From an uncultured Bacteroidales bacterium (lineage in GTDB: Bacteria; Bacteroidota; Bacteroidia; Bacteroidales; CAZJDA01): DNA of 64,000 nucleotides. Made by a program: the position numbers and the translations under genes. The notes beneath the pieces are model-generated. The model was given only the letters and a program-made list of their open reading frames with translations, did no database searches and was not told the origin of the DNA. The stretch covers positions 76,661-140,660 of the forward strand of contig CAZJDA010000005.1 of the NCBI GenBank assembly GCA_964544705.1, given 5' to 3'. Shown here in pieces: positions 6,765-38,769 of the stretch (its first letter is position 1; each line of letters opens with the position of its first letter).

Positions 6765-6770
6765 TTAAAA

Positions 6771-21212: not shown

Positions 21213-21495
21213 ATATTAAATCTGGATCAATTGATTTTAAATATTTTTCTTTAATTCCTTTTTTTGAAACCAAATCAACCTTAAATCCAACAATATTTTC
21301 TAAATCATCTGCAAGGTCAACGAACCGGATTCCAATTTTATCTGAAAACTCAACAAGAATATCCAGATCACTGGAATCATTTTGTTCCTGGCGTGAATAA
21401 GAACCAAAAATCGCCATGGTTTTTATTGGATATTCATGAAGCAATCTTTGTTTATGAATATTCAACGTGTTTTTTATTTCCTGCAATGTTTTCAT
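21205..21495 (-). CDS. mntA: MntA-like minimal nucleotidyltransferase antitoxin
   Basis: GSYSRQEQNDSSDLDILV matches the GSxxR...DxD NTase motif. Confidence 0.8.
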   Translation of the reverse strand: MKTLQEIKNTLNIHKQRLLHEYPIKTMAIFGSYSRQEQNDSSDLDILVEFSDKIGIRFVDLADDLENIVGFKVDLVSKKGIKEKYLKSIDPDLIYV

Positions 21496-21566
21496 ATCTC
21501 AAAAATAAGATTTTTTAACCAATTACAGGATAAATCAATCTAAATATTTCATGCTTAAAATGAAAC

Positions 21567-22496
21567 CTAGTACAGCTTTTTCCGCTTAACCAGGTAAGAT
21601 TGCAAAATGGGTTCAAAACCTTCGTTGATGTCGGCTTCAACAAATTCAATTTGGTATTGCATGCATTTGATCTTTAGTTGTTTCTCGTAATCTTGCATGG
21701 CTTTGATATATTGTTTCCTCACTTCAGCAGGCCTTAACTTTATCTCATTATTTGTTTCAACATCCACAAACCGGTAAGGTTTATTAGCAAAATGGAATTC
21801 TGATTCTTTACTTTTATCTATCACATGGAAGAGGATTACTTCATGCTTTTTATGCTTAAGATGCTGCAAGGCAGAAAAAAGTTCATCTTGCTTGGTGTGG
21901 GTTTCCATCATATCGCTAAAAATGATCACCAAGGAACGTTTATGAATGTTTTCTGCCAATTGGTGCAAAATTTCCCCTGCATGGGTTGTTTTAGGTGTTT
22001 TGCCGGGTTCAAGCAGGTTTTCTAATTCATGAAACAGCCGCTTTTGATGCACAGCGCTTGAGCGAGCTTTGGTATGCAGTTCCAAGTTATCAGAAAATAC
22101 TGATAACCCAAGTGCATCGCGTTGTTTTTTAAGCAAGTATATTAATGCGCCTGCAGCGTAAGCCGAAAAGGTGATCTTATTATGCTGCCCTTTGCTTAGC
22201 TTAGCTTGCAAGGGATAATGCATAGAAGAAGAATTATCAATGATCAACTGGCAACGCAGGTTGGTTTCTTCTTCAAATCGTTTAACAAAAAGTTTGTCTG
22301 TGCGGGCGTATAATTTCCAATCAATATGCTTGGTTGATTCCCCGGTATTATAAATCCTGTGCTCTGCAAACTCAACAGAGAACCCATGAAAAGGGCTTTT
22401 GTGCATACCGGTAATAAAACCTTCAACAACTTGCCGGGCGATAAGTTCCAAGTTGCTAAATCTTTGTAATTGGTAATGGTTAAGCCTGTCAGCCAT
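21567..22496 (-). CDS. DUF58 (vWA-like) domain protein
   Basis: The N-terminal block HKSPFHGFSVEFAEHRIYNTGE is typical of DUF58. Confidence 0.75.
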   Translation of the reverse strand: MADRLNHYQLQRFSNLELIARQVVEGFITGMHKSPFHGFSVEFAEHRIYNTGESTKHIDWKLYARTDKLFVKRFEEETNLRCQLIIDNSSSMHYPLQAKLSKGQHNKITFSAYAAGALIYLLKKQRDALGLSVFSDNLELHTKARSSAVHQKRLFHELENLLEPGKTPKTTHAGEILHQLAENIHKRSLVIIFSDMMETHTKQDELFSALQHLKHKKHEVILFHVIDKSKESEFHFANKPYRFVDVETNNEIKLRPAEVRKQYIKAMQDYEKQLKIKCMQYQIEFVEADINEGFEPILQSYLVKRKKLY

Positions 22497-22520
22497 AATT
22501 GAAAGAAGTTATAAAAATAT

Positions 22521-22552
22521 ACATCCGGCATTTATCATAAAATACCGGATGT
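22521..22552 (-). terminator. Stem-loop downstream of trxA
   Basis: ACATCCGG-(16 nt)-CCGGATGT is followed by a T-rich tract on the minus strand. Confidence 0.5.
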
Positions 22553-22574
22553 AATAGAAAAAAATTCGTTGCTG

Positions 22575-22892
22575 TTATAGTAAGCTGTCCAGTTTGCCTG
22601 TGAGCACGTTTTTTGGAACGGCGCCAACTTGTTTGTCAGCTACTTCACCATTTTTAACAAATAGAACTGTAGGGATATTCCTTATCCCGAATTTTGACGC
22701 AATGCCAGGGTTGCTGTCAACATCAACCTTACCAATAACGGCTTTATCTTTGTATTCTTCGCTCATTTCTTCCACGATTGGCGCTATCATCCTGCATGGG
22801 CCACACCATTCTGCCCAGAAATCAAGCATTACAGGTTTGTCAGACTTCATTACTTGTTCCTCGAAGTTGGATTCGTTTATTTCTAATGCCAT
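22575..22892 (-). CDS. trxA: Thioredoxin
   Basis: 105 aa with the active site WAEWCGPCRM. Confidence 0.9.
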   Translation of the reverse strand: MALEINESNFEEQVMKSDKPVMLDFWAEWCGPCRMIAPIVEEMSEEYKDKAVIGKVDVDSNPGIASKFGIRNIPTVLFVKNGEVADKQVGAVPKNVLTGKLDSLL

Positions 22893-22975
22893 AGTTTTTA
22901 ACTTTTTAGTTTATAGTTGATACAAATTTAAGCAAATTTAATTTTTTAAACGCTAATTTATCATCATTTATTGAA

Positions 22976-25900: not shown

Positions 25901-26437
25901 ATGGCCATGATCTTGCAATTCTAAGTAAAAATCTTCTCCAAAAATATCGGTATATTCTTTTAGAACAGCTTCAGCTCTTTCTATTCCATGGTTCATGATG
26001 GCTTTGGGGATTTCGCCTCCCAAGCACGCCGAGCTTGCTATCAAGCCCTCGTGGTTTTCTTTTAACAATTCTTTATCGATGCGTGGGGTGTAATATTTAC
26101 CCTCCAAAAAACCAATTGAGCAAAGTTTTGTAAGGTTCCTGTAACCGGTCTTGTTCTTGGCAAGCAATATAAGATGGTAGCCACTCCTGTCTTCCTTAGA
26201 CTTTTTTTGGAGGTGGCCGTTTCGAGCCATATAAAATTCGCAGCCAATAATGGGTTTGATGCCGTTTTCCCTGGCTTGTTCATAAAAATCGATAACACCG
26301 AACATATTGCCATGGTCGGTAATGGCAATGGAATCCATGCCATATTCTTTTACCTTGGCCATAAGCCCGCCAATATCAGCGGCGCCATCCAGGATAGAAT
26401 ATTGTGTATGTACGTGTAAATGGGTGAATTCGGACAT
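22976..26437 (-). CDS. dnaE: DNA polymerase III alpha subunit
   Basis: PHP domain start MSEFTHLHVHTQYSILDGA, GLLKMDFLGLKTL, and OB-fold tail. I prefer the ATG at 26437 over the track start at 26491. Confidence 0.95.
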   Translation of the reverse strand: MSEFTHLHVHTQYSILDGAADIGGLMAKVKEYGMDSIAITDHGNMFGVIDFYEQARENGIKPIIGCEFYMARNGHLQKKSKEDRSGYHLILLAKNKTGYRNLTKLCSIGFLEGKYYTPRIDKELLKENHEGLIASSACLGGEIPKAIMNHGIERAEAVLKEYTDIFGEDFYLELQDHGHEEQKTVNKALIELSKKHGVKLIATNDVHFINRDDAEAHDILICLNTNEDAESAERMRYTGFEYFRPVEEMKDLFADVPEAITNTVEIANKVEEYEITTKEILLPVYPIPEPFEGENEYLRHLTYEGAKKMYPEITDEVKQRLDHELNIIKEMGFPGYFLIVQDFINEARKRKVWVGPGRGSAAGSAVAFCIGITSIDPIKYNLLFERFLNPERVSMPDIDIDFDDEGRERVMDYVIEKYGKEKVAQIVTFGTMAARSAIRDVGRVLKLPLPETDKLAKLVPEGPKVKLADAYKDVKELVAALQKGEEKVRKTLDFAKTLEGSVRHVGTHACGVIIGPEALINHVPLSTAKDSDLAVTQYEGKYVESAGMLKMDFLGLKTLSILKDAVENIELRLGKKIDIENVSLEDEKTFELYQRGDTIGTFQFESDGMRSHLRELKPTSIEDLIAMNALYRPGPMDFIPTYINRKQGREKVEYPHPWLEEILENTYGIMVYQEQIMQAAQIMAGYSLGAADVLRRAMGKKILDVMAEQKKIFVKGAVDKGVDEEKAKEVFTVMEKFAKYGFNRSHSAAYSVVAYRTGYLKAHYPAEYMAAVLTHNLNDLKKVTSFMDESKRQGIPVLGPDVNESFYNFVVNKEGAIRFGLGAVKGVGEGAVEAIVKERQANGPFKSFFDLLKRINLKSANKRCIEALAMSGAFDNFKDSHRAMYFYQENNEGLTFIDKAIKHVNAVESRKNSQQPSLFGDSEEVEIPDPPMPKCEEWGKLDALKKERDVIGIYISGHPLDNFKIEIEHFCNHTVNELKELIEQKKEKEIKIGGIITSVQHKYTKKNKPMASFILEDYTDAIQLFMFSNKYVELKNYLEEGYLVLIKGKVAPNYKNKDQYEFQVNTINLLSEVMEKQAKELTIKLSVQEVSNELINQLSSLAESNKGNCSLKFKVIDPLEKITIDMYSKKYKIDCNGFLNKLTDSAKVDFSLH

Positions 26438-26667
26438 AGTATTGGGATTTTGGTGTAAAATTATTGAATTTTTTTCTGCCGGTAAAAACAAGTTTTCAAA
26501 AGTTATTAAGAGAGAATGGAGAATGCAGAGTGAAGAAGGCAGAATTTAGGAGGTAGGGGGAGTAGGAACTCTTTTTATTTAAATCAAAATAATATTTCAC
26601 AGCGACAAATTTTGGCATATGGTGGGTTTACTTTTGGAAGCAATTATAAACATTAAAAGATATCAAA

Positions 26668-27603
26668 ATGAAAAACACTAAAGCCTCTAAAACCATGTTG
26701 AGAAAATCGTTATTGAAAATGCTTACCGCTGCTGTATTTATTGTAACAATAGGTTCTTGTTCAAATCCCGAAAAATCAGGTAAAAGAGTTGCGCAGGATG
26801 AATGCGAATGCATGCAAAAAACAGGAAAAGCTCTATTTGCATTAATAGATGAATTTATGAAAAAAATTGAAGAGGAACATTATGATAAACAATGGAATGC
26901 CTTTAAGGATTATTTCACCCTTACAGATGAATTGGCTGAAAAAAATGAAGCCTGTTTAGAAAAAGCTGGATATGAAAAAATGAAAGAGAAATATTTAACC
27001 AATAAGGAGGCTATTGAAAAGTTTGAATACGCTTATAAGGCTCAGTCAGCAAATTGCGATACAACTATAATAAGCAAAAGTGGTGAAAGATTCCTGGAAT
27101 TGGTATCAAGAATAAGGAATATCAGGGATATGGAACATAAATTGAATAAGATGGTCCATTTTTCAAGCTTAAGTACTTCCTGGAATGTTTATTCCTATTT
27201 AGATGCTGATGAAGATTGGACAACGCATTATTTTGAAAATAAGGAGGAATATGACAAAATACCCAAAGATAGCCTGTCAGAGATAAAAAGAAAATTTTTT
27301 TATGGACGAAAAATGAAAACAGGTGATTTTAATAATGATGGTATTACCGACCATGCAACAATTATACAGAATTACTGGGATGGGGATAAAATAAAGTTGC
27401 TTATTGCAAATGGAGGCAACAAAGGAATGTATTTATTAGACACAAGGGGCTCTTTTGGCATAATAGAACAGGAAGAAATGGAAAATGGATTTGGAAAGGG
27501 TATTGGCGATGGCATCATGGATATGTGTAAAGAATGCGTGCCTTTTGTAATACATTGGAATGGAGAAAGATACGAAACAGGTGGATATTTTTGGTTTAAT
27601 TAG
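26668..27603 (+). CDS. Hypothetical lipoprotein (one FG-GAP-like segment)
   Basis: Lipobox TIGSCSN. TGDFNNDGITDHA resembles an FG-GAP/VCBS calcium-binding loop. Confidence 0.5.
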   Translation: MKNTKASKTMLRKSLLKMLTAAVFIVTIGSCSNPEKSGKRVAQDECECMQKTGKALFALIDEFMKKIEEEHYDKQWNAFKDYFTLTDELAEKNEACLEKAGYEKMKEKYLTNKEAIEKFEYAYKAQSANCDTTIISKSGERFLELVSRIRNIRDMEHKLNKMVHFSSLSTSWNVYSYLDADEDWTTHYFENKEEYDKIPKDSLSEIKRKFFYGRKMKTGDFNNDGITDHATIIQNYWDGDKIKLLIANGGNKGMYLLDTRGSFGIIEQEEMENGFGKGIGDGIMDMCKECVPFVIHWNGERYETGGYFWFN

Positions 27604-27640: not shown

Positions 27641-27737
27641 GTGACGCGTCACATTTATTATTGAGAATCTATATTGTTATAATTGAGCAAATTGCCAGAT
27701 AGATGATACATTATTTCATTGTTGACTTAACACTAAG
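27641..27737 (+). repeat. ~96-nt dispersed element R3, copy a, beginning with the palindrome GTGACGCGTCAC
   Basis: About 90% identical by eye to 57555-57650 in the same orientation. It ends 14 nt before the WYL gene ATG. Confidence 0.85.
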
Positions 27738-27751
27738 AAAGCTAGGAAACC

Positions 27752-28675
27752 ATGACGAAAAGAGAATCCATATTGAGGTATATATTGATTATCAGGAAGC
27801 TTAGGAATTTCAAATATTGCACCTTCCAAGAAATCAATGATTATTTGCAATCTGAAGGCGAAATTCACGGCTACAACCTTAGCGTTTCCAAAAGAACATT
27901 CCAAAGAGATAAAAATGATATTCGATCCATTTTTAATATGGATATACAATTTGATAGTATGCATAATAAATATTTTATTGAAGAAGAACCCGATGATAGT
28001 GAAGAGTTGAGCCATAGAATGTTAGAAGCATTTGACTTGTTCAATTCGTTAAACCTTGCCCAGGGCATGAAGGAGATTATTTCTGTAGAAACCCGCAAAG
28101 CGCTCGGTACAGAGCACGTGTATGGTTTGATGCATGCCATAAAAAACCGCCACAAAATATCCTTTTTTTATTATAAATATGATGAAGAAAAGCTTACGGA
28201 ACGTGTGGCAGAGCCATTGCACCTCAAAGAATTTAAATACCGGTGGTACCTAATTGCCAATGACATAAATGGCAGGAATAAAACCATGAAAACATTTGCC
28301 CTTGACCGCATGTCTGGGTTAGATATTTTAAAAGAGAAATTTGCTGTACATGAAAAACTTGATTTCAAAGCCTATTTCTTTGATGCATTCGGGATTATAA
28401 AGCCAACAGATAAAGGGCCACGAAAAGTTGTTTTATCTTTCGACCCTTTACAAGGGCAATATATTAAGTCATTGAAGCTCCACCATTCGCAAAAGGTGCT
28501 AATAAATAATAATACGGAATACCGTGTGCAACTAAAAGTATATATTACCTGGGATTTCATACAAGAGTTAATGATGTTTGCCAACACGATGACCGTTATA
28601 GAACCTTTGGAACTAAGAGCGCAAATAAAAAGGATTTGCCGGGGGTGTTTGGAGTTGAATAAGGGGAGTGGGTGA
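27752..28675 (+). CDS. WYL-domain transcriptional regulator (HTH + WYL, BrxR/CapW-like architecture)
   Basis: The N-terminal wHTH-like region and the WYL core ISFFYYKYDEEKLTERVAEPLHLKEFKYRWYLIAND. Confidence 0.8.
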   Translation: MTKRESILRYILIIRKLRNFKYCTFQEINDYLQSEGEIHGYNLSVSKRTFQRDKNDIRSIFNMDIQFDSMHNKYFIEEEPDDSEELSHRMLEAFDLFNSLNLAQGMKEIISVETRKALGTEHVYGLMHAIKNRHKISFFYYKYDEEKLTERVAEPLHLKEFKYRWYLIANDINGRNKTMKTFALDRMSGLDILKEKFAVHEKLDFKAYFFDAFGIIKPTDKGPRKVVLSFDPLQGQYIKSLKLHHSQKVLINNNTEYRVQLKVYITWDFIQELMMFANTMTVIEPLELRAQIKRICRGCLELNKGSG

Positions 28676-28779
28676 GATTGAATGTTTTAAATTGGGATCT
28701 CTTAAACTACAATAATCAGGCTACATCTTATAAATATGGTAAAAATATGAAATAGAACTGCTTGTATTGGCCGTTAATA

Positions 28780-29217
28780 TTAAGTTGGGATTGGATATAA
28801 TATAATTTCAAAATCAAAACTATCTTTTATTTCTTTAAACAACGCTGATTTTGCAATTTTATTAATACCTTCTTTTTCTGAAATAAAAACGAAAGTTTTA
28901 AAATCCATTTGATTATTTTTTTTAAACACCAAAAATTTTAGTATATCTTTATAAAACTCATGGTGAGGGTTTGTCCCAGAAACTTTTAGTTCATACGCTA
29001 TTTTCTTCTTAGAATCAACCAAATCAATTTTTTCATTTGATTTATCACTTATCGGAACCTCTACAGATATCTCCGGATATTTTTCTTTCGGAAATTTTTC
29101 TTGCCATAATTTAGTTATTATTTGTGATCTTTTTGTCCTTTTTGAAACATCACTTTTGCCTTTTGGGTTCTTGGCAAAAATGGATTTAAGTGGACTAACA
29201 ATATCTTTAATTTCCAT
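28780..29217 (-). CDS. Small protein with a possible PD-(D/E)xK nuclease motif
   Basis: 145 aa. IDLVD-(7 aa)-YELKV fits D...ExK spacing. It is the last gene of a tightly packed four-gene operon (4-nt gap to the exonuclease gene). Confidence 0.45.
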   Translation of the reverse strand: MEIKDIVSPLKSIFAKNPKGKSDVSKRTKRSQIITKLWQEKFPKEKYPEISVEVPISDKSNEKIDLVDSKKKIAYELKVSGTNPHHEFYKDILKFLVFKKNNQMDFKTFVFISEKEGINKIAKSALFKEIKDSFDFEIILYPIPT

Positions 29218-29221
29218 AATC

Positions 29222-29716
29222 TTAATGTTTTATTAATTTCATATACAATTCAGCACAAGCCCTTGCATCAGAAAGGGCTTCATGATGTTTTAATGCAATG
29301 CCTTCAATTGCGCAACACTCATCCAATGTACCTGAAGGATATTTATCAATTCCCCGGCAATATTTCATTGTACACTCCCACCTGTCCGGAATATTTAATT
29401 CTGAATAGTCAAAACCATTATCCGCCATTGATTTCCGTAATGCACTTCTGTCAAAAGATTCATTGTGAGCAACAACAATTTTAGCGGTTAACCGCTTTTT
29501 AATCTCAGGATAAATTTCAATAAACGGAAGTGCGTTCTCGGTATCTTCAGGTGTTATGCCGTGAACCTGCATACAATGCCAATTATATTTGTTATTTGGT
29601 GGTTTAACCAGGGAAAAGTATTCTTCAATTATTTTGCTATTTTCAACCGTAACAATGCCTACGGCGCAAATGTGGTGGTAAATAGCGGTTTCGAAGTCGA
29701 TTGCTGTGAAGGTCAT
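29222..29716 (-). CDS. DEDDh 3'-5' exonuclease (DnaQ/epsilon-like)
   Basis: ExoI AIDFETA, ExoII VAHNESFD, ExoIII HHEALSDA. Confidence 0.85.
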   Translation of the reverse strand: MTFTAIDFETAIYHHICAVGIVTVENSKIIEEYFSLVKPPNNKYNWHCMQVHGITPEDTENALPFIEIYPEIKKRLTAKIVVAHNESFDRSALRKSMADNGFDYSELNIPDRWECTMKYCRGIDKYPSGTLDECCAIEGIALKHHEALSDARACAELYMKLIKH

Positions 29717-29719
29717 GTA

Positions 29720-32077
29720 TTAAATTTTATTAGAGTTCTTCGAATGGTTTAATAGAAAATCTTTGAGTTTTTCTAATGATACATTATCATGCTTTATCCA
29801 TTCCTTATTTTCATTCAGCTCTTCCAAAAAATCCCTTGTGTTCCATCTAAAAGGTTTCTTATCAGAAGTAAACTCGATATCCCATCCCCAGAAAAAGTCA
29901 ACACCTTCTAATTTTTGCTCACTTACAATGACTTGGTTATCTACCAATTTCGATAAAACACTATTCCGTTTATCCCCAACAACATATTTTTTCCAGTTTG
30001 CATTTGCTCTTGGAGGATACAGGCAATGTTTCCCATGCATCCATTTTAATTGACATCCTCCGACAATAAGTGATAATAGATTTGTACATACAAGTTCCCT
30101 ATGGATTGTTTTATTTTCTTCAATGAATGTTTCATCTGGTCTCGCTTTTATTTTTTGCAAATTCATAAGATTATTGTCCAATAAACAACCTACAGGAACT
30201 AACCATTTTTCCTTGGTTAATATATTTTTCCATGCTGAAGCCTTGTTTTCATAGACAATATCCCAAAACTGACCCCAATTATTGAAATGTGAAATGAGGT
30301 TTCGGAGGAGAATAGCATCTTTTTTATACTCATCTTCAACACCTTGTTTATTAAAAAACATCTTACATTTTTCAAACCTATTATCAAATTTATCCCAATC
30401 ATATTCATTATTACCAGTCCTAAATAAAAAACGAATAGCACCTTTAAAAAAGGCTGTATTTTCTGCTTCTATTATCTTATCTTCCCAAGATTTGCCATCT
30501 GAGTCCTTCCAATGTGAGTTATCCAATATTTGTCTGGCTTTTTCCTTTTCTTCCTCCATTTGCTCTTTTGCAAAGTCTTTTGAAACATCACGGTCTCTAA
30601 GATGATTGAGTATATCATGAGAATTATCCGCCAATTCATTAATTAAGCGCATAGCTCCGATCATTTTTTGAATTGAGTCAATATCAGCATTCTCAACAAT
30701 ATTCCAAACAATCCTTATCCAACGCATCAAACTTTTCTTTTCATAATCACCTTTTTCAAAATAGCAACATATAGCATGGAATACAACTCTTTGTGATTGA
30801 GTTATAGTAGTAGGGAAATATTTTTCTCTATCTTCGTCCTTTTTATATCCAGGGATAAATCTAAAATCGGAATTATCCTCCCAATTCGGAAAAAAAAGTT
30901 CATTTATTTCATCTGTTGATGCCCCATTAAAAACATTATGAAAGCGATCAAGTACTTTTTCCAATTTTTCTAATCCTTCCTTAATTACTGACTTTTCCGA
31001 TTCGTAAAGATCAAATCCATTATATCGAATATTAACATCATTTCCTCTATCCCCGTACAAATACTTGAATAATTTATTGTTTTTTTCAGGATCACTAAGA
31101 AATCTTTGTTCTTCCGCTTTTGCTGTTATCAAAAGATTAAGCCAAAACCGATTAATAAAAGCAAAGTAAGCTTTATCAATTTCAGATTCTTGAGACCTGT
31201 ATTTCCAAAAAATATTAGTCCATGTTGTGTCTAACTTATGTTCGATTGTTTCTACAGGAACTTTATTTTGCTGATCGATATTTTTCTCAGTTTCTCCTAT
31301 ATATCCAACAAGATCAGCCTTAAAATTCTCGAAATTGCTTAATGGCTTTCCCCTGGCATTCATTTTAATATACAGATCATCGGATAAGCTCAAATCCAAT
31401 AAATCAATATAATAAAATATAATCGGACAATAGTCTCCTGTTAATTTTTCCCAATATTTTTTGAAGTCACCTTTCACACAGCCCTCGAATATTTCATCGA
31501 AACCATCTATTATTTCGTTTTCCTTATCATCTTTAATGGAATTACCGCCAAGCATGTTCATCATTGCCTGAATAGTTGGGTCTTGTTTCCAGGATGAAAA
31601 AAACCATGTTTGGTTTTTGATTGTTTGTACTATATTGTCGGTTTCGATTGACTCAAAGTCAGAAAGTTTATTGCAAAATTCTCTTGATGTTGTTCGTGTT
31701 TCATAGGTGAATTTTTTAAAAACCCCCCTATTATTTTGCAACTCCCCTGATTTAAAGGCAATATACCAATATAACAGCCATAGAGTTGTTAAACGCTGTT
31801 GTCCATCGAGCGGATTTAACCGGTTATTTTCAACGCTCCCATAAACAAAATCCAATTTTAAAGGTTTATTATCTTTTTCATCTTTCTTATCTAAGGCTGT
31901 TTTTATATCTGTAAGAAACTTTTCACGTAACTTTTCTTTACCTATTCTTCCCTGGGCATAATCACGTTGTATAATCGGAATTTCAATTTTTCGATGTTCA
32001 TTTATTAAGAAAGCCCAAAATGTTGTTTGTTGAATATTATTGTTTTTCATTATTTTCTTTTTCTGGTAAAAATTCAT
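29720..32077 (-). CDS. DUF262 (ParB/Srx-like NTPase) protein without a recognisable DUF1524 nuclease
   Basis: IPIIQRDYAQG and LDGQQRLTTLWLL lie at the N-terminus. I cannot assign the long C-terminal region. The start may be the internal ATG at 32050. Confidence 0.8.
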   Translation of the reverse strand: MNFYQKKKIMKNNNIQQTTFWAFLINEHRKIEIPIIQRDYAQGRIGKEKLREKFLTDIKTALDKKDEKDNKPLKLDFVYGSVENNRLNPLDGQQRLTTLWLLYWYIAFKSGELQNNRGVFKKFTYETRTTSREFCNKLSDFESIETDNIVQTIKNQTWFFSSWKQDPTIQAMMNMLGGNSIKDDKENEIIDGFDEIFEGCVKGDFKKYWEKLTGDYCPIIFYYIDLLDLSLSDDLYIKMNARGKPLSNFENFKADLVGYIGETEKNIDQQNKVPVETIEHKLDTTWTNIFWKYRSQESEIDKAYFAFINRFWLNLLITAKAEEQRFLSDPEKNNKLFKYLYGDRGNDVNIRYNGFDLYESEKSVIKEGLEKLEKVLDRFHNVFNGASTDEINELFFPNWEDNSDFRFIPGYKKDEDREKYFPTTITQSQRVVFHAICCYFEKGDYEKKSLMRWIRIVWNIVENADIDSIQKMIGAMRLINELADNSHDILNHLRDRDVSKDFAKEQMEEEKEKARQILDNSHWKDSDGKSWEDKIIEAENTAFFKGAIRFLFRTGNNEYDWDKFDNRFEKCKMFFNKQGVEDEYKKDAILLRNLISHFNNWGQFWDIVYENKASAWKNILTKEKWLVPVGCLLDNNLMNLQKIKARPDETFIEENKTIHRELVCTNLLSLIVGGCQLKWMHGKHCLYPPRANANWKKYVVGDKRNSVLSKLVDNQVIVSEQKLEGVDFFWGWDIEFTSDKKPFRWNTRDFLEELNENKEWIKHDNVSLEKLKDFLLNHSKNSNKI

Positions 32078-33941
32078 TTAACACTTTTTTAATATTCTCC
32101 TTGTATGCTTCGGCATCTTCTTGATTCCACTCTCGTAAATTATTTGTGGAAGGATTGTAGTACTTCAAAAATACATTTTTTGTGCATGGGGGAACAAAAG
32201 CAACTTCTCCTTCTTTTTGCTCAATTTGTAGGTACTCATCAACCAAAATTGATTTTCCCTGGTCTTTTCCAATGATGGCTCTGCGTTTTGCAGGGAATAT
32301 TGAATTACCATAACTTTTATTTGTCGAACTATCAAGTAATGTAAAGTTCCAGATTTTGTTTTTATCAGTTTCACTTAGTTTTGAGCTATTATCTCTAGCA
32401 ATTATTTTTTCATGCAATTTTTCAAAAATGTCGTTCTCATTCTTTTCACTATTCGCATCATCATTTAAAAATTCGATTATCTTTTTTTTCAAGTCTTCGT
32501 TCTCCAAGCCTATTGAAGATGCTTTTAACCATTCTTTTTGCTGTTCCTTATTCCCTAAGGAATTTTCGGTGCTCGAATCAACATGCTCAACATCCCATTT
32601 TTCTTTTTTGAAAAGATGAAATGGAAATTTATAGAAAACAGGGAGCTTGTATTTCTCATTTTCTATTAAAGCCTTGCTTTGATTAATGACAGTTTGAATG
32701 TTATGAAGCAAAAGAAGCGTTCGACATTGTGTTTTGGGTTTTCCATTTACATCATATTCTTTATCTAAGTCAGAAAAGGATGACATTTTGTTTTTTATCT
32801 CAGATTTGATGTAATCAATAAAATCATCCTTTCTTTTGCTTTTTTTCCATTCTCCAAGCATATCAGAAATTCTACTTCCTTGTTCAGATAGAAAACCTAC
32901 ATAATGATATAATTCTAAATCATTAAACCATTCGTTAAAAGTCTGAAATAATTCTTTTACTTTTCCCCAAGATGTTGAAATGTCGACTTCCTTTTGCTTT
33001 TTAAACCAAGCATAAAAATATCTAAATGTTTTGTATTCATCATCGCCAACCTCCTTTTGTTCCTCATCATTAAGGTTAAGCATATTGTTTTTACAGATTA
33101 AGTCAAAGATAAAATCTATACGTGTGGGTTTATCATAATTGATTTCATTTAGAAAGAGCCAAAACTCATCATTTTGCAGAGTAAATTCAATATAATCCCA
33201 TTCTCCTGCGATCTCTTGTTGTTGCAATCTTATTTTTTGATAATCAGCATTTTTAAAATTTGATTTATTAAGGAATAGTGCTTTAATAAGTTCTGAATTT
33301 GTAAGGGCTATTTTCCCAATATTTAATCTGGTAAAAACTTTTATGGGATCCTCATCTATTGATTCATACCAAATAAATTTCACATTGCCTAAAAGAATCT
33401 TCAAATAGTTGTTTTTGAACTGATTGCTTTCTCTTCCCTTTTCACTAAACCAGTCTGATATTTGCGAATGAGCTTCATAAATATGATGATAATCAATATT
33501 GTCATCTTTTTTAATTCCCTCAATTTTACTTAGAAACTTTTTACTATCGGGTCTTGTCTCATATTCTATCTCATATTCTTTCTTATTTAGATATACAAGC
33601 AAAATAAAAATAGTAGTTAGTCGCTGTTGTCCATCGATAACTTCCCATCGCGAATATTCGTTAATTATTTTTTCTGTTTTGCTTATCAGATTATTCTTGT
33701 CTGTTGGATCAAGCTTTTTAAGCTCATTGCAATAATGCTCTTCATATATAATGTTTTTCTTAATAACAAGAGGTTGAATGCAATAGAAACCTCCTATTTT
33801 TTTTTCTATAGACTCATTAATATCATCCAATAAATCTTTTACTTGTTGCTTAGTCCAGCGATAACCTCTTTGATATTTAGGAATAAAGAAATTCATTCCT
33901 GATAATTCACTTATTGATTTTAATTCAATCTTATTTCTCAT
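32037..33941 (-). CDS. GmrSD-family type IV restriction enzyme (DUF262 + DUF1524 His-Me finger)
   Basis: N-terminal motifs are IPKYQRGYRW and DGQQRLTT. C-terminal motifs are WDVEHVDS and NFTLLDSSTNKSYGN. Confidence 0.85.
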   Translation of the reverse strand: MRNKIELKSISELSGMNFFIPKYQRGYRWTKQQVKDLLDDINESIEKKIGGFYCIQPLVIKKNIIYEEHYCNELKKLDPTDKNNLISKTEKIINEYSRWEVIDGQQRLTTIFILLVYLNKKEYEIEYETRPDSKKFLSKIEGIKKDDNIDYHHIYEAHSQISDWFSEKGRESNQFKNNYLKILLGNVKFIWYESIDEDPIKVFTRLNIGKIALTNSELIKALFLNKSNFKNADYQKIRLQQQEIAGEWDYIEFTLQNDEFWLFLNEINYDKPTRIDFIFDLICKNNMLNLNDEEQKEVGDDEYKTFRYFYAWFKKQKEVDISTSWGKVKELFQTFNEWFNDLELYHYVGFLSEQGSRISDMLGEWKKSKRKDDFIDYIKSEIKNKMSSFSDLDKEYDVNGKPKTQCRTLLLLHNIQTVINQSKALIENEKYKLPVFYKFPFHLFKKEKWDVEHVDSSTENSLGNKEQQKEWLKASSIGLENEDLKKKIIEFLNDDANSEKNENDIFEKLHEKIIARDNSSKLSETDKNKIWNFTLLDSSTNKSYGNSIFPAKRRAIIGKDQGKSILVDEYLQIEQKEGEVAFVPPCTKNVFLKYYNPSTNNLREWNQEDAEAYKENIKKVLNEFLPEKENNEKQ

Positions 33942-34207
33942 TATATCATTCCCTCTAAATTTAACTTCTAATTTCGCTTTTTTTAGTAATTAATGCCTTA
34001 AATTTATACTAAAAATTTGTAAATATTTTCTTATGACAAATTTAACAATAATTTTAACTCTGGTTGCTTTTTATGACTATTTTAATGATTTTTTTAAAAA
34101 GAATATATTAACATTAGTAAGCCATCTTTTCCAAATTCTATATTTCCCATCCAGCCCATGAAAAACACCCTAAATCAATAAATTGATTTTTTTAAATGAC
34201 TACATCA

Positions 34208-35788
34208 TCAGAATTTATTAATTCCTATCATCTCAACTAAATCTTCCTGTTTAGCCCCATTGGGATAAATCACTTTTGCCAAGCGAACAAGGTTCCTGAT
34301 TTCCCTGCCGTTTAATTCGATTTTTGACACTTCTGAAAAACCATCTTGAATATTAATATTCGCTTTCTCGCATTTATCTTCCCAAATTTTTTCTCTTGTT
34401 TTTTCATCTAAATCAGGATATTTAATTTTTAAGGTAATTCTTGAATGGATAGCAAAATCGAGTACTTCCGGCCTGTTTGACGTTAAAAACATTACACCTC
34501 TAAAATAGTCCATAAGCCGTAAAAACACTCCCACAATGGCCGTTCTGTTTAAGTCACTTTTTTCTCGTTTCGCAAGAAAAACATCGATTTCATCAAACAA
34601 TACAATGGCATTCCATTTTTCAACTCGTCTAAAAATAGTGGTTAGGCTATTTTCTATACTGTTTAAGTCTGTGCCCAGTTCACTAAAATCTACAGCGTAT
34701 AGTGGCATCTGTTGCATTTCAGAATATACTTCGGCAGTAGATGTTTTCCCAATTCCCGGATTACCCGCTGCAAGTATAATCATACCTCCATGTTTATTAT
34801 CTAATACATCGCCAATAAAAGAATCTATTGATGTAGAAAACACGGTTGTTAAAAGTTTTGTAATATTCTTTGGAAGAAAAATTCTTTTATGTGCCTCTGT
34901 ATCATAAACGTAATCAGTTAAATTATTCACATTTGCAAAAAAATACTTTTTTTGTAAAAAGGAAAACACCCGTACTAATGGTAGTGAAGTATAATGATTT
35001 TTATTAACTTCCTGGTTTCTATTTGAATTATCTCTATATTCTAGCTCTGATTCTATTATTATTCTCTCTTTAATTTTATTGTGACCAATTTTAATGAAAA
35101 TACAATCATCATTATAATAATTTCTACCAAGCATCCTTACACCAAATCCACTGTATAGCATTTGCTTTTTTGTATCTCTTATTTTTTTAAGATATGATAA
35201 TGAATCTTTATGTTTTTCGAGATCACACTGTTGCGGACGACAACCAAACTCGGCAAACAGCTCCTTTAATGTTGGTTTTCTCATTTTCCCATCGGCAGCA
35301 AGTAAGTGTTCTTGCTCAATTTTAAAACCAATATTAATATATTCATAACCAAAACTAACTTTGACGTCAACAAAAACAAAAGCCTTCATATATCTTGTAG
35401 CCGGGTTGAATATAGGTATTGCAATTATAGGAAACCATGTTTTATTGAATAAGATATCTGCGTTTACTTTTTTTACACCTATTCTTGAAAAACATTCAAC
35501 AACATCAGCCAATTTTCTGATCTTTGTATCCCATACTTCATTGATTTGCGAAATTTCAATGTTTTCGCCTAAAAGTTCCATGCTTAAAAGCGCTTTTGTT
35601 TTATTCGCAATGTTGTTTGAATTTTTCAAAAAGAATGATAATAACGATACAGAAATAGAATTACTGTCTATGTCAACAAAACGGCTTTCTGCATTTTGGT
35701 AATTACCAATTTCTTGCTGGTCAGAATTACTTAAGTCCAGCTCTTCTTTAGCTTTATTTAAAAGCGCTTTCTTAATTTTAATATTCAT
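34208..35788 (-). CDS. AAA ATPase (classical AAA clade) with uncharacterised ~330-aa N-terminal region
   Basis: Walker A AAGNPGIGKTSTAE, Walker B IVLFDEIDVF, sensor-1/second region of homology FLTSNRPEVLDFAIHSRI, then LKIKYPDLDEKTREKIW. Confidence 0.85.
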   Translation of the reverse strand: MNIKIKKALLNKAKEELDLSNSDQQEIGNYQNAESRFVDIDSNSISVSLLSFFLKNSNNIANKTKALLSMELLGENIEISQINEVWDTKIRKLADVVECFSRIGVKKVNADILFNKTWFPIIAIPIFNPATRYMKAFVFVDVKVSFGYEYINIGFKIEQEHLLAADGKMRKPTLKELFAEFGCRPQQCDLEKHKDSLSYLKKIRDTKKQMLYSGFGVRMLGRNYYNDDCIFIKIGHNKIKERIIIESELEYRDNSNRNQEVNKNHYTSLPLVRVFSFLQKKYFFANVNNLTDYVYDTEAHKRIFLPKNITKLLTTVFSTSIDSFIGDVLDNKHGGMIILAAGNPGIGKTSTAEVYSEMQQMPLYAVDFSELGTDLNSIENSLTTIFRRVEKWNAIVLFDEIDVFLAKREKSDLNRTAIVGVFLRLMDYFRGVMFLTSNRPEVLDFAIHSRITLKIKYPDLDEKTREKIWEDKCEKANINIQDGFSEVSKIELNGREIRNLVRLAKVIYPNGAKQEDLVEMIGINKF

Positions 35789-35791
35789 TTT

Positions 35792-36091
35792 TTATGTTTT
35801 AATTTTTAAACCAATATCTTCGGCAATTGATTTCCAATATCTATTATGATTATTTTCAAGTCCGGCAATTGCATGCGCAATTTCATGTAATATAGTATTT
35901 TGGATTTCATCGATAGGATCTAACAGAGAGTGCTGATAGTTTAATTTTATAGCTTCATCGGTGCAGTAGCCCAGTTTTAAACTATCATTTGAAAATCCAA
36001 AATCTAAATAATCCACATCGAATTTTACCATCAAGTGATTAGCTAAAGCGATTACTTCCAAAATTTTTTCATTTATTACAAATTGTGCCAT
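35792..36091 (-). CDS. SprT-like HExxH zinc metallopeptidase (minimal, 99 aa)
   Basis: FGFSNDSLKLGYC...IKLNYQ...TILHEIAHAI...NHNRYW follows the SprT-like layout. It overlaps the upstream gene by 23 nt and lies 3 nt before the AAA gene. Confidence 0.6.
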   Translation of the reverse strand: MAQFVINEKILEVIALANHLMVKFDVDYLDFGFSNDSLKLGYCTDEAIKLNYQHSLLDPIDEIQNTILHEIAHAIAGLENNHNRYWKSIAEDIGLKIKT

Positions 36092-36659
36092 AAGTTCTAA
36101 ATAATGACTCTAAAAGTATATAAGCTTCTTCATCTACATTTTTATAATATTCCGGAAATGGTATATTTTTATTCCTATCTGTGATTTCATATTTTGCAAC
36201 ATGGCAATTATAATTATCCAGTTGATTTAGTGCATCATTTGCCATATTATTCTTTTTATTGCCTTCAAATGATGCCGGCAAAGTAACTATTATAGAAAAA
36301 TGCTTACCGGTTTCAGACAAAAACTCAGATAAGCGTAAAGAGAATTTGGTTCCTGTATATCCTCCCAAACCGGCTACAAGAATATAATATTCATTTTCAT
36401 TAAATATATCCATTATTTTGCCCGGCACTATCAAAGGAACACTTTTATCTGTCCAGGCTTCCGGGTACCTGGTATTTTTAAAATGCTCATCTAAGGGAGG
36501 CTGAAACTCCATGAGATTTAAACCCATTGGATTTGAAAAGCGTTCCGGCCGAGATACACAAGTGTACCTGCCATGTAATCCTTTCTTAAAAGTATGTTCC
36601 AAAATCATAGAACCTGCCTGGCCTAAACCAATAAAATGAAAATTTTTGAATGACTTCAT
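36069..36659 (-). CDS. FtsZ/tubulin-like GTPase domain protein, C-terminally truncated (196 aa)
   Basis: The motifs fall in FtsZ order and spacing. FIGLGQAGS corresponds to GVGGGGxN. [10 protein letters not shown] corresponds to [20 protein letters not shown] corresponds to KPFxFEGxKR. YEITDRN corresponds to ITIPNDK. The protein ends around helix H7, before the T7 loop. Confidence 0.7.
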   Translation of the reverse strand: [196 protein letters not shown]

Positions 36660-36909
36660 ATCGTAAAAATTAAATGATTTTTGTATAAAATTACTTCAAA
36701 CAGACTTCATTATTAATTGAATCTATCCTATTTTTCACAAATATAAACCCCCAAGGTGTCAAAACATGTCGCAGTAATTTGGAAAAGGATTTTTTCTATT
36801 TTATGATTCCTATTGGCACTTCTCACTTTAGTTACCTATCTGCAATATTTTTTGTATATTTGAATAGAACTTCAATCAATAGTAACAAACGGAATAACTA
36901 CAAAGTAAA

Positions 36910-37053
36910 ATGGATCTATCCAAATCATTGTTTTGGGATACGGATATCAATAAGGTTGATTACGAGAAACACGCCCGTAAGATTATAGAAAGGGTTTTGA
37001 TGCGTGGAACTTTAGACGACTGGTTTGAAATAAAACGCTATCCTATTTTATGA
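36910..37053 (+). CDS. 47-aa ORF translationally coupled (ATGA overlap) to the PLD nuclease gene
   Basis: Manual translation gives MDLSKSLFWDTDINKVDYEKHARKIIERVLMRGTLDDWFEIKRYPIL. Its stop TGA (37051-37053) overlaps the ATG at 37050. It is below the track length cut-off. Confidence 0.35.
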   Translation: MDLSKSLFWDTDINKVDYEKHARKIIERVLMRGTLDDWFEIKRYPIL

Positions 37054-37568
37054 GTACCAAATTCATTACCAACGAACAACTTTATCAACAAGTTATAGAA
37101 CCCATTATTCAGGCTAAAAAGTTCTTATGGATTGGTACGGCAGATATAAAAGACTTGCACGTTAAGCACCAAGGGGCGGTAAGGTCATTTCTTGCTGTAC
37201 TCGATTCATTGATACGGCGGAAGGTAGCTGTCCGGCTTTTGCATGCCAAAGAACCGGGGCCTAATTTCCGCAAGAGTTTTGATAAATATCCCGGCCTATG
37301 GAGTGGGTTGGAGCGCCAGCTTTGCCCCAGGGTGCATTTTAAGATCATCGTGATAGACGGCAAACTGGCATACACAGGCTCTGCTAATTTAACAGGCGCC
37401 GGGTTAGGCATAAAAAGCCCCAACCACCGCAATTTTGAATCCGGCATCGTAACAACCAACCCTCAAATGATTGACGAGATCATGCAACAATTTGACGAAG
37501 TATGGATAGGAAAACACTGCAAAAATTGCAAAAGAAGAAGTTATTGCTTGGATCCTATTGATACATGA
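37050..37568 (+). CDS. Phospholipase D-family (HKD) nuclease, Nuc-like single-domain
   Basis: The HxK(x4)D(x6)GSxN motif appears as HFKIIVIDGKLAYTGSANLT. At 172 aa it has the size of the homodimeric Nuc-type enzymes. The C-terminus has a CKNCKRRSYC cysteine cluster. Confidence 0.8.
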   Translation: MSTKFITNEQLYQQVIEPIIQAKKFLWIGTADIKDLHVKHQGAVRSFLAVLDSLIRRKVAVRLLHAKEPGPNFRKSFDKYPGLWSGLERQLCPRVHFKIIVIDGKLAYTGSANLTGAGLGIKSPNHRNFESGIVTTNPQMIDEIMQQFDEVWIGKHCKNCKRRSYCLDPIDT

Positions 37569-37639
37569 TGAGATGGTTCTTTTGTACCGCAGTCACCCGG
37601 TGAATAGATGATATTCGCAGTGTGATTTTATATCGGGCT

Positions 37640-37720
37640 TGTTGAGTTTGAAAGTTTGTAAAGTTTTTAAAGTTTGAAAATGTTGGTTTAGCTTGCTTTT
37701 TCTTTAACGTTTTACTGCCA
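37640..37720 (-). repeat. Inverted partial copy of the R2 tail / R1 head module
   Basis: The reverse complement matches ACAGTAAAA.GTT...AAGAAAAAGCAAGCTA.ACCAACA.TTTCAAACTTTA.AAACTTTACAAACTTTCAAACTC seen at about 8240-8340. Confidence 0.7.
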
Positions 37721-38214
37721 GAAGTTAATAAAGTTCACGAAAAGCGCGTCATTTCGAACCTGCGGAGCAAAAGGCATGCAGGGATTAGGCAAGGAGAAAC
37801 CTGCTTGCCCAGTGCAGCGCAGCAAACAAAATCTTATAACCCACGGTGGCTGAAATCTTTTGGTTAAGTGCAGTGGAGCGAATAAAATTTTTCAGCCACT
37901 AAGACCCAAAGGCTCTAAGATTCTCTAAGTATACATATTGCAGTGCATTCAGCAATATTCCTCAAAGACCATCCTCCGCTGGCCCTTTGATTCCCTGCTG
38001 TGCTTCGCTAAAGCTACGCGACAGCGAAGAAGGGAGGCCAGCGCACCGCCATTAAAATTTTCTTAAAGCCTTCCAGGCTTTTGGGCTTGCCTGTTTTCCT
38101 AGCCCAGGGCGTTGCCCTGAACTTTGATGCCAGAGCCTTACCGGCTTTTTGGGTTTTGTTTCCTTTAGCGAAAATTTTTGAGTGCACTGCATTTTATACC
38201 TATCAATATGGGCA

Positions 38215-38459
38215 ATATAGAAAAGCCCTGTAAGGGCGCAACAACAAAGTCCTGGGCGAAGTCCGGGGGTAAATGAAAAGAAAATACACCCCGCCGACCT
38301 GGTGTTGTAATTTTGTTGTACACAATTTGCATCGGCGGGAATTGTATACAGTTAGCAACATATGTTCACCATACTCACCCGGTGAATTGTTCATAAAATG
38401 CTCAGCACTCAGCACATGTAAAATTTTTATTGCATTGGCTTGATATTCACCGGGTGACA
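38215..38459 (-). repeat. Inverted modular homologue of R1 copy b
   Basis: The reverse complement starts GTCACCCGGTGAATATCAAGCCAATGCAATAAAAATTT (near-identical to 6771-6808). It keeps the ATTCACCGGGTGA arm, the CCCGCCGA...TCGGCGGG stem and the CGCCCTTACAGGGCTTTT module, with divergent spacers. Confidence 0.75.
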
Positions 38460-38650
38460 TTTAATAAAGCCTACTGTTTCTTTAACTTTCATGTTTTGTT
38501 AAACCTGATGGCATATAATCCACTAAAATCTTAATTTTTTCTTCCTTTGTGAAGAAAATAAAGCTTTTTCGATTTCTAATGTTTAGTCCTGAAATAAATT
38601 TACTTTTTCTTTCCATTTTTTTTTGTAAACCTATACCAGGACGAGACAAA

Positions 38651-38686
38651 ATAAAAAAGGGAATGAAATATTTACTTCATTCCCTT
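38651..38686 (-). terminator. Rho-independent terminator after tRNA-Cys
   Basis: AAGGGAATGAA-(loop)-TTCATTCCCTT followed by a T-run on the minus strand. Confidence 0.7.
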
Positions 38687-38698
38687 TAGCGCTGTTAG

Positions 38699-38769
38699 AG
38701 GTCTCGAGCGGATTCGAACCGCTGTGAAAGGTTTTGCAGACCTCCGCCTAACCACTCGGCCACGAGACC
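38699..38769 (-). tRNA. tRNA-Cys (anticodon GCA)
   Basis: Minus-strand sequence is GGTCTCGTGGCCGAGTGGTTAGGCGGAGGTCTGCAAAACCTTTCACAGCGGTTCGAATCCGCTCGAGACCT. It has a 7-bp acceptor stem, the anticodon loop CTGCAAA and the T-loop GGTTCGAATCC. It was folded by hand. Confidence 0.85.

Follow-up and report, generated by a model that had tools for sequence, protein, structure and literature searches.

The block between dnaE and tRNA-Cys

The DNA analysed here is a 64,000-nucleotide (nt) stretch of contig CAZJDA010000005.1 from an uncultured Bacteroidales bacterium (hereafter, the window), with an overall guanine-plus-cytosine (GC) content of 35.1%. We were concerned with the block of genes that lies in it between dnaE and a tRNA-Cys gene, and above all with two members of that block, a regulator of the WYL family and a small tubulin/FtsZ-like protein, which we call mini-FtsZ. 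Gene content was derived from a listing of open reading frames (ORFs) together with Pfam, PADLOC hidden Markov models and NCBIfam, and the tRNA was identified with ARAGORN and Rfam. The initial annotation of this DNA had listed a WYL regulator, a GmrSD-type enzyme, a DUF262 protein, a DEDDh exonuclease, an FtsZ-like/SprT/AAA triad, a small ORF followed by a phospholipase D-like (PLD) protein, and a spacer of about 1.1 kb; matches in Pfam, PADLOC and NCBIfam bore this list out (Table 1).

Table 1. Features of the window from dnaE to tRNA-Cys (aa, amino acids; PWM, position weight matrix score).
Feature	Position	Strand	Evidence or remark
dnaE	22976-26491	-	
P1 operator-promoter	26599..26638	+	PWM 25.7
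lipo311, predicted lipoprotein, 311 aa	26668-27603	+	within 26648..27603, the start of the strain-variable segment
WYL+WCX regulator, 307 aa	27752-28675	+	Pfam WYL 1.3e-14, WCX 2.2e-8
145-aa protein, fold not assigned	28780-29217	-	last gene of the minus-strand array
DEDDh (DnaQ/RNase T-type) 3'-5' exonuclease, 164 aa	29222-29716	-	Pfam RNase_T 5.8e-20
DUF262-only protein, 785 aa	29720-32077	-	GmrSD_N 1.4e-21
GmrSD-like DUF262 protein, 634 aa	32037-33941	-	GmrSD_N 1.5e-30
Classical-clade AAA ATPase, 526 aa	34208-35788	-	Pfam AAA 1.3e-14
SprT-like zinc metalloprotease, 99 aa	35792-36091	-	Pfam SprT-like 1.4e-7
Mini-FtsZ (tubulin/FtsZ-like), 196 aa	36069-36659	-	AlphaFold, Foldseek, G-box motifs
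P2 operator-promoter	36736..36775	-	PWM 26.6
DUF6922 protein, 47 aa	36910-37053	+	Pfam 4e-19
PLD/HKD nuclease-like protein, 172 aa	37050-37568	+	PLDc_2 2.7e-14
Non-coding spacer, 1.13 kb	37569..38697	no strand	GC-rich dispersed repeats
tRNA-Cys terminator	38656-38687		14-bp stem, 3' of the tRNA, inside the spacer
tRNA-Cys (GCA)	38698-38769	-	ARAGORN; Rfam tRNA, 63 bits; sole tRNA in the window

The large protein database held one close relative of this genome, with 98% DnaE identity; the next best match had 65% and shared no flanking genes. Two contigs of the relative, obtained from other samples (L043 and L044; our locus numbers are used throughout), aligned with positions 20988-26647 of the window at 94.8% nucleotide identity, after which BLASTN similarity was lost. 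The relative's contig continues for just 758 bp past this breakpoint and carries two small unrelated ORFs there. The region upstream of dnaE is thus strain-variable, and we take the accessory block to run from 26648 to about 38650. Since the variable segment begins at 26648, the lipoprotein gene, which has no family match in Pfam or NCBIfam, lies inside it; the left edge had previously been put at 27641, with the lipoprotein gene as a flank, and has to be moved. Species-representative genomes were uninformative as a test of synteny, because their best DnaE N-terminus was 68% identical and neither a flanking gene nor a tRNA lay near dnaE in them. On the other side of the block, exact-protein look-ups with the two ORFs beside the tRNA matched the source sample alone, and the relative's tRNA-side contig was not found among them.

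The composition of the block is uneven. Its core (28780-36659, 7.9 kb) has 31.1% GC, less than any other 8-kb stretch of the window, although the dip is modest, at about 4 points or 2.3 standard deviations (8-kb windows across the 64 kb: mean 34.9%, standard deviation 1.7). GC at third codon positions (GC3) was 0.19-0.27 in six core genes, lower than in any of the 39 ORFs from outside the island (minimum 0.275), and the difference between island and outside ORFs reached p = 0.02 for GC3 but p = 0.10 for codon-usage distance (Mann-Whitney). The PLD gene has 43.7% GC and the highest GC3 of the window (0.465), the spacer 40.1% GC and the WYL gene 36.4%, and the 5 kb to the right of the tRNA, at 31.8%, are nearly as AT-rich as the core. 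The initial annotation's AT-rich island therefore exists as far as the core is concerned, which is lowest in both GC and GC3, but does not extend to the PLD gene and the spacer, both GC-rich, and neither codon-usage distance nor comparison with the right flank clearly sets it apart. Because the right flank is AT-rich and the PLD gene and spacer deviate in the opposite direction, composition alone is weak evidence, and it indicates a mosaic.

The WYL-mini-FtsZ pair and a shared operator motif

Mini-FtsZ consists of the N-terminal GTPase domain of FtsZ plus helix H7, within which it ends at residue 196. Its AlphaFold model, computed on a family alignment, had a mean confidence (pLDDT) of 92.7, and the 50 best Protein Data Bank (PDB) matches listed by Foldseek were all FtsZ (best E 2.7e-8), with query-normalised template-modelling scores of 0.56-0.70, and of 0.61-0.70 for all but two of them. 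The window protein carries the motifs GLGQAG, GLGGYTGT and P(A)SFEG, which read HFIGLGGAG, GLGGYTGT and PFxFEG in the family alignment. Sequence kinship with FtsZ is remote: the Pfam Tubulin model gave 29.9 bits (gathering score 33) and TIGR00065 (ftsZ) 30 bits versus a cut-off of 295. No T7-type NxDxxD motif was found in family members of 260 aa or less, and the C-terminal domain is also absent from them. An exhaustive HMMER search recovered 285 family representatives (clusters at 50% identity), mostly of 190-230 aa and none more than 36% identical to that of the window, while a word-indexed search of 5.8 billion proteins returned mini-FtsZ itself alone, as one cluster from one contig lineage. 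The viral contigs and plasmids searched contained no relatives. Literature searches on FtsZ-like proteins with SprT or AAA proteins, on FtsZ-like proteins in defence islands and on WYL genes paired with FtsZ-like or tubulin genes found no description of the family; as far as these limited searches go, this half-size copy of FtsZ represents a previously undescribed family.

To place mini-FtsZ in context, we collected eight loci by exact-protein look-up and sixteen by a metagenome scan, about 15 of them independent. At seven loci (L020, from Marinilabilia salmonicolor, and L029, L030, L033, L037, L038 and L039), mini-FtsZ is preceded, at a distance of 0-199 nt, by a WYL homologue on the same strand; these homologues match the window regulator with E values of 1e-60 to 1e-87 and 41-48% identity. 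At L034 the WYL gene lies 1.4 kb downstream of mini-FtsZ. WYL and mini-FtsZ are thus a conserved gene pair in other Bacteroidota, which in the window is found at opposite ends of the block. A single inversion as the cause of this separation was considered and dropped: inverted repeats were not found at the putative breakpoints, and an inversion is not needed, because the layout with two promoters described below accounts for the positions of both genes.

The genes around the pair vary from locus to locus. Neighbours of mini-FtsZ elsewhere include HsdR (type I restriction), SRAP, the large subunit of exonuclease VII (ExoVII-L), Cas10/RAMP, AbiEii, McrBC, Mrr_cat, RmuC, integrases and insertion sequence (IS) elements. 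A SRAP peptidase and ExoVII large subunit (L027, 2702-3565 and 3915-4811) and RmuC (L040, 8282-9901) adjoin mini-FtsZ genes. Two families recur at these loci. One, of about 240-250 aa and without a Pfam match, adjoins mini-FtsZ at L020 (7718-8437), L026 (6209-6946), L027 (965-1723) and L028 (4539-5297), and takes the place of the WYL gene in the last three. The other is a 75-83-aa protein with two CxxC...RHPxGxxKGKH repeats (L025, 6142-6393, minus strand; L033, 267-494, plus strand; L037, 1467-1718, plus strand), which heads a GmrSD-pair operon at L025 and a DEDDh-PDDEXK_4 operon at L033, each behind the WYL operator. Homologues of the 75-83-aa protein are absent from the window, as are the small zinc-ribbon, ~240-aa and PDDEXK_4 partner families.

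The window regulator matched no Pfam helix-turn-helix model. A profile built from eight WYL-family homologues matched PafBC at 5e-15 and DriD chains at 3e-9 to 1e-8, across WYL and WCX, versus 8e-4 for CapW and 6e-3 for BrxR; judged by this profile, the regulator is closer to DriD and PafBC than to CapW and BrxR. Residues R48 and R52 in the recognition helix (SKRTFQRD) are invariant across the eight homologues, and two recognition-helix arginines are a feature described for PafB (PMC6789036).

A motif was found in the regions upstream of WYL genes at other loci. The first position weight matrix (PWM) for it, 19 nt long and built from four sites, was not discriminating, its top score being reached by 13% of shuffles, and it was therefore replaced by a 40-nt matrix built from 20 sites at other loci, with none from the window. 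The consensus of the 40-nt matrix, aC.aCGACAcaTTTTGtCgta-N8-TAtcTTTG, comprises an inverted repeat, CGACA-N5-TGTCG, that overlaps a -33 TTTG element and is followed by a -7 box, TAnnTTTG; -33 TTTG and -7 TAnnTTTG are the consensus elements of Bacteroidetes promoters.

The two best scores in the window were 26.6 at 36775 on the minus strand, 77-116 nt upstream of the mini-FtsZ start (P2), and 25.7 at 26599 on the plus strand, 30-69 nt upstream of the lipoprotein start (P1). The third, 11.7, is the P1 site read in reverse, and in 200 shuffles the maximum averaged 10.9 and never exceeded 19.2. An exact core, GYGACMNNTTTTG, is present at both P1 and P2, which are its two occurrences in the window, versus 0.20 expected. 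No site scoring 20 or more was found in 304 kb of control dnaE loci from 17 other genomes. The only control site of at least 15 (18.9; CTGCCGACACACTGTGTCGGCAG...) lies at L010, 1449-1488, on the minus strand of a contig labelled Paceibacterota. P1 (ACAGCGACAAATTTTGGCATATGGTGGGTTTACTTTTGGA) carries a CGACA-N5-TGGCA operator over the -33 TTTG and, beyond it, TACTTTTG as the -7 box, and faces lipo311 and the WYL gene; P2 (ACTGCGACATGTTTTGACACCTTGGGGGTTTATATTTGTG) faces the mini-FtsZ-SprT-AAA unit. Both sites fit the form CGACA-N5-TGNCA, face inward and head two convergent units. On the strand of dnaE, the corresponding pattern, TTTGTCG-N11-TANNTT, is not enriched (2 versus 2.5 expected), so that an operator for dnaE was rejected; it is on the plus strand, toward the island, that the site reads strongly.

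A simple stack of modules, as initially proposed, does not fit the conservation of the WYL-mini-FtsZ pair elsewhere or the same predicted operator at the head of both units. The 19-nt matrix, weakly discriminating as it is, also placed copies elsewhere: before mini-FtsZ alone (L024, L025, L026, L040), AAA-SprT-WYL-mini-FtsZ (L037), GmrSD pairs (L024, L025), DEDDh-PDDEXK_4 (L033), Mrr_cat (L034) and RmuC (L040). An RmuC gene that carries the WYL operator, together with repair genes that adjoin mini-FtsZ, hints at a regulon covering repair besides restriction.

P1 is conserved in the relative (L043), where similarity ends 9 nt past the site, a few nt beyond the -7 box (window 26640-26650; L043, 750-760). 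What lies ahead of this conserved WYL-type promoter thus differs between the two strains: in the relative, two small convergent ORFs turn their 3' ends toward it.

Nuclease, protease and ATPase modules

Families associated with defence cluster in the block: two DUF262/GmrSD proteins, a PDC-S48-like DEDDh protein, an IetA-like AAA ATPase, a DrmC-like PLD protein and the WYL regulator. No island protein reached a curated NCBIfam cut-off, and no complete named defence system was found with Pfam, PADLOC or NCBIfam.

The AAA ATPase has 330 uncharacterised N-terminal residues followed by an AAA domain of the classical Cdc48/p97/Rix7 clade, and its best PDB matches were Rix7 and p97. The SprT-like protein carries an HEIAH motif and scored above the Pfam gathering score; its gene overlaps that of mini-FtsZ over 23 nt, and 3 nt separate its end from the AAA gene, which makes the three a tight operon. 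At L037 the order is AAA, SprT-like, WYL and mini-FtsZ, and the AAA gene there (3891-6984) is interrupted by an IS3-type transposase (rve domains). The IetAS system is said, in work of Gao et al. in 2020, to pair an AAA ATPase with an S8 subtilase protease in a defence context. It resembles the window unit in having an ATPase gene beside a protease gene, and the best PADLOC and NCBIfam matches of our ATPase are IetA models. However, the PADLOC match (2.7e-14) covers the AAA domain region alone, IteA_antiphage gave 40 bits versus a cut-off of 510, the partner is a 99-aa SprT-like zinc protease rather than an S8 subtilase, and mini-FtsZ heads the operon. An 8+8 perfect palindrome, AAATCAATAAATTGATTT, lies at 34172-34189, 19 nt past the AAA stop codon, with too small a loop to form a hairpin; since it occurs once in the window, we ruled it out as a shared operator.

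The 634-aa protein matched PF03235 (DUF262, ParB-like NTPase) at 107 bits versus a cut-off of 33, while PF07510 (GmrSD_C) reached 12.6 bits at its C-terminus, below the cut-off of 23. When the protein is aligned with two homologues, one of them with a Pfam GmrSD_C match, E452, H453, N532, N541 and N546 are invariant, giving an EH...N...N motif and a His-Me-finger-like C-terminus. The protein is thus a candidate GmrSD-like type IV restriction enzyme. BrxU, which occurs alongside BrxR, is an enzyme of the GmrSD family. Like GmrSD, BrxU and SspE, the 634-aa protein has an N-terminal DUF262 and a C-terminal EH...N...N motif, and it gave distant matches to SspE; unlike them, it has a C-terminal domain below threshold, stands in a conserved tandem with a DUF262-only paralogue, and shares its operon with the DEDDh and 145-aa genes. 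In that paralogue, of 785 aa, the N-terminal DUF262 was the only domain detected, residues 260-785 matching none. A tandem DUF262 pair also adjoins mini-FtsZ at L024 and L025, the L025 pair being up to 44% identical to that of the window.

The DEDDh exonuclease matched PADLOC PDC-S48 at 1.5e-28 and DEDDh at 2.4e-26, and a homologue lies near the WYL-mini-FtsZ pair of L033 together with a PDDEXK_4 nuclease. Its gene is separated by 4 nt from that of the 145-aa protein, which had been labelled PD-(D/E)xK-like. The sole match of the latter was to SMEK_N, below threshold (18 bits versus a cut-off of 27), and its single-sequence AlphaFold model (pLDDT 50) was unusable, which leaves the label neither supported nor refuted.

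The DUF6922 and PLD genes are translationally coupled through an ATGA overlap. The PLD protein is DrmC-like, at 39.5 bits versus an NCBIfam cut-off of 133, and Pfam and PADLOC detected none of the DISARM partners DrmA, DrmB and methylase in the block. The pair had no match in plasmids, and a literature search on DUF6922 found nothing relevant. Because their composition differs and the operator is absent, we treat the pair and the repeat spacer as separate additions to the block.

Proposed regulation and function of the block

WYL regulators that sense single-stranded DNA (ssDNA) couple DNA damage to division arrest and phage defence in Caulobacter, mycobacteria and Acinetobacter. DriD of Caulobacter crescentus binds ssDNA and activates the division inhibitor gene didA, its own gene and recA; the operator used in binding assays, ATACGACCGTTTCTGTCGCA, is a 20-bp palindrome adjoining the -35 region (PMC9186387). 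DdaA, of Acinetobacter and other Moraxellaceae, activates the division inhibitor gene aciT, recA and repair genes, and restriction-modification and CRISPR systems (PMC13010146, PMC12392091). The published motifs are CGAC-N7-GTCG for DriD and CGWCA-N5-TGWCG for DdaA (PMC12392091), and the motif described here matches these forms in silico, at the two window sites and about 20 in related loci.

The parallel with DdaA extends to its winged helix-turn-helix, WYL and WCX architecture, to an operator that CGACA-N5-TGTCG fits, and to the arrangement proposed below, in which one regulator governs a division inhibitor, repair and restriction or CRISPR defence (PMC12392091, PMC13010146). The two differ in phylum and are distant in protein sequence, and the division effector candidate of the island is an FtsZ fragment, whereas that of DdaA is the small protein AciT. 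DriD similarly shares a WYL regulator, an operator near -35, and targets that include its own gene and a division inhibitor (PMC9186387); its effector DidA, however, is a small membrane protein acting on FtsN/FtsW/FtsI rather than a truncated FtsZ homologue, and in the mini-FtsZ loci, unlike the DriD system, nuclease and protease operons share the operator. The BrxR and CapW regulators resemble the island in that a WYL gene stands beside a GmrSD-type nuclease and defence genes in a variable island. As far as the papers cited in PMC12392091 describe them, they are repressors at the head of their own operon; the island regulator's profile matches them much more weakly, and its operator is of the DriD/DdaA type. 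Our limited literature searches found no ssDNA-sensing WYL circuit in Bacteroidota.

We think it probable, if well short of certain, that the core of the block is one regulatory unit, the local regulon of a DriD/DdaA-like WYL regulator triggered by DNA damage or phage. In the scheme that we infer, from its ligand and the choice of activation over repression to read-through and the function of every protein, ssDNA arising from DNA damage or phage attack would bind the WYL domain, and the ssDNA-bound regulator would act at P1 and P2 and switch both units on, as DriD and DdaA do at their targets. P1 would drive the lipoprotein and then the WYL gene. P2 would drive mini-FtsZ, SprT-like and AAA, with transcription expected to start about 7 nt past TATATTTG, and could read through into the GmrSD-like, DUF262, DEDDh and 145-aa genes; this second operon may be transcribed in that way or from an ordinary promoter of its own in the 266-nt gap before it. 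Mini-FtsZ would cap FtsZ-type filaments and so block division, a role suggested by its retention of the nucleotide face and lack of the T7 face. Removal or destruction of protein targets would fall to the SprT protease and the p97-like AAA unfoldase, and modified foreign DNA would be cut and trimmed by the GmrSD-type enzyme with its DUF262 paralogue and the DEDDh exonuclease. The sequence does not tell whether repair, a division checkpoint or anti-phage defence is the purpose of such a unit, and the example of DdaA, which controls both repair and defence, shows that these roles can coexist.

SulA, MciZ and bottom-face mutants of FtsZ are known cappers of FtsZ filaments. Mini-FtsZ has the nucleotide-binding domain fold and G-box motifs of FtsZ and lacks the T7 face, as does the capping mutant; it differs from FtsZ in missing the C-terminal domain, in its low sequence identity, and in the twin-arginine-like signals found in nearly half of its family.

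Several observations count against this scheme. Capping is its weakest step, because mini-FtsZ is no more than 14-20% identical to FtsZ and nearly half of the family looks exported. A twin-arginine-like N-terminal signal (MNRRxxIKxL, then an uncharged stretch) was present in 57 of 128 representatives, which implies export of a nucleotide-binding FtsZ-like domain in those members and makes a cytoplasmic capper a poor fit for the family as a whole; 32 of the 128, the window protein among them, have no N-terminal extension. At the operators, the left half-sites of P1 and P2 are perfect and the right ones (TGACA, TGGCA) are not. P1 lies in DNA shared with the relative, and may for that reason belong to the conserved dnaE flank and not to the island. 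The operator is absent ahead of the GmrSD operon, and the 266-nt gap upstream contains a plausible ordinary -7 box, TAAATTTG; that operon may therefore be independent. Among the loci examined, the window alone has the complete mini-FtsZ-SprT-AAA order, and orthology of the AAA genes across loci did not hold up, those of L020 and L034 resembling the window ATPase in the generic AAA domain only. The sample of related loci is small, at about 15 independent ones. The dnaE-side promoter, 12 kb from the tRNA, is the only boundary mapped, the right boundary and an empty site not having been seen. Finally, binding, induction and phenotype are for this block wholly inferred.

Of the competing explanations, the one that survives best, and which we regard as possible but distinctly less probable, is a chromosomal, SOS-independent DNA-damage cluster that is not anti-phage and has the GmrSD genes as incidental neighbours. 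Its outputs would be a mini-FtsZ checkpoint, exonucleases, and repair of DNA-protein crosslinks by SprT and the p97-like AAA, as with SPRTN/Wss1 and p97/Cdc48 in eukaryotes. The resemblance of the operator to DriD/DdaA damage-response operators (PMC9186387, PMC12392091) and of the regulator to PafBC and DriD rather than CapW and BrxR would suit it, as would the position of P1 in conserved DNA beside dnaE and the presence of RmuC, SRAP, the ExoVII large subunit and DEDDh among neighbours and motif-bearing genes elsewhere; both characterised regulators of this type, moreover, induce a division inhibitor (PMC9186387, PMC13010146). A chromosomal repair cluster accords less well with the absence of the block at the same position in a 95%-identical strain, with HsdR, Cas10/RAMP, AbiEii, McrBC, Mrr, GmrSD pairs, integrases and IS elements near mini-FtsZ elsewhere, and with the same operator on the GmrSD pairs of L024 and L025. 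In addition, DdaA itself governs repair and defence, so that the two readings are compatible.

We consider it unlikely that the block is an old, immobilised island at a tRNA-Cys hot spot, in which independent defence modules were stacked and WYL is a mere passenger. The 3' end of the tRNA does point toward the block, which varies between strains; the AT-rich core and GC-rich PLD gene suggest several acquisitions; and the defence-type match of each module in PADLOC or Pfam, with no named system complete, is what a mixture of orphan modules predicts. Yet no integrase or transposase domain was detected by Pfam in any ORF of 26.6-39 kb, and nowhere in the window does the 23-nt 3' segment of the tRNA have a copy with three or fewer mismatches or share a stretch of 13 nt or longer. 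This confirms what had been remarked upon initially, that integrase, transposase and a duplicated tRNA 3' end (12 nt or more) are all lacking, and the proposed search for attachment (att)-like repeats of the tRNA-Cys 3' half came out empty. With a tRNA that has its own terminator and a sole mapped boundary on the dnaE side, the insertion hot spot finds no support here. What remains of the accessory island is the strain variability at its left edge, a modest shift in core composition, and nuclease and NTPase genes typical of defence islands; nothing was found to link it to the tRNA. That WYL and the FtsZ-like gene are a conserved pair elsewhere, and that the sole two strong operator sites in 64 kb head both units, argues further against a passenger regulator.

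Nor does the DNA beside the tRNA look like an insertion scar. Spacer segment 37640-37716 matches 8268-8344 at 91% identity, and 38373-38469 matches 6760-6849 at 88%; the motif TCACCCGGTGAAT had 9 matches versus 0.76 expected. Two further intergenic regions of the window contain these repeats, so that the spacer is native repeat DNA rather than the scar of an attachment site. A structured RNA or att site was likewise rejected for the spacer, Rfam giving no credible family for it or for the dispersed repeats. Three such GC-rich intergenic regions (6240-6965, 8168-8401 and 37569-38697) stand in the AT-rich genome, with segments of 77-97 nt that are 88-91% identical, and TCACCCGGTGAAT forms inverted pairs about 60-70 nt apart (6772/6835 and 38375/38445). 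Short-read assemblies break at these repeats, that of the source sample within the spacer itself.

That the AT-rich 'island' is a mere fluctuation of composition in ordinary core genome is very improbable: the small GC dip (about 4 points, 2.3 standard deviations), the AT-rich right flank (31.8%) and the codon-usage result (p = 0.10) would allow it, but the replacement of DNA from 26648 onward between strains already contradicts it, and both the restriction of mini-FtsZ to one cluster and one contig lineage among 5.8 billion proteins and a gene content typical of variable islands speak against it.

In the reading that we favour, the block belongs to a known kind, the WYL-regulated damage and defence cluster, and what stands out in it is the pairing of WYL with mini-FtsZ, which had not been described. 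Operator logic of the DriD/DdaA kind recurs here in Bacteroidota, next to genes that provide candidate regulon members, mini-FtsZ being the gene most tightly linked to the regulator. Should mini-FtsZ block filaments of FtsZ or phage tubulin, it would be a division inhibitor derived from a division protein and a new type of effector, for a checkpoint or for abortive infection, and would lend itself as a natural tool to the study of filament polarity. A wider proposal, which we hold to be doubtful, is that Bacteroidota possess an SOS-independent damage and phage response under DriD/DdaA-like WYL regulators, with a half-FtsZ that caps FtsZ or phage tubulin filaments as its signature effector, and with SprT/p97-like proteins and GmrSD pairs as optional modules. 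More generally, regulatory motifs can reveal apparent 'stacks' of defence genes as a single unit.

Elsewhere in the window, an S-adenosylmethionine (SAM) riboswitch of the S-box type was detected on the minus strand at 57771-57867 (66.7 bits, above the gathering score), near the gene that the initial annotation labelled metH.

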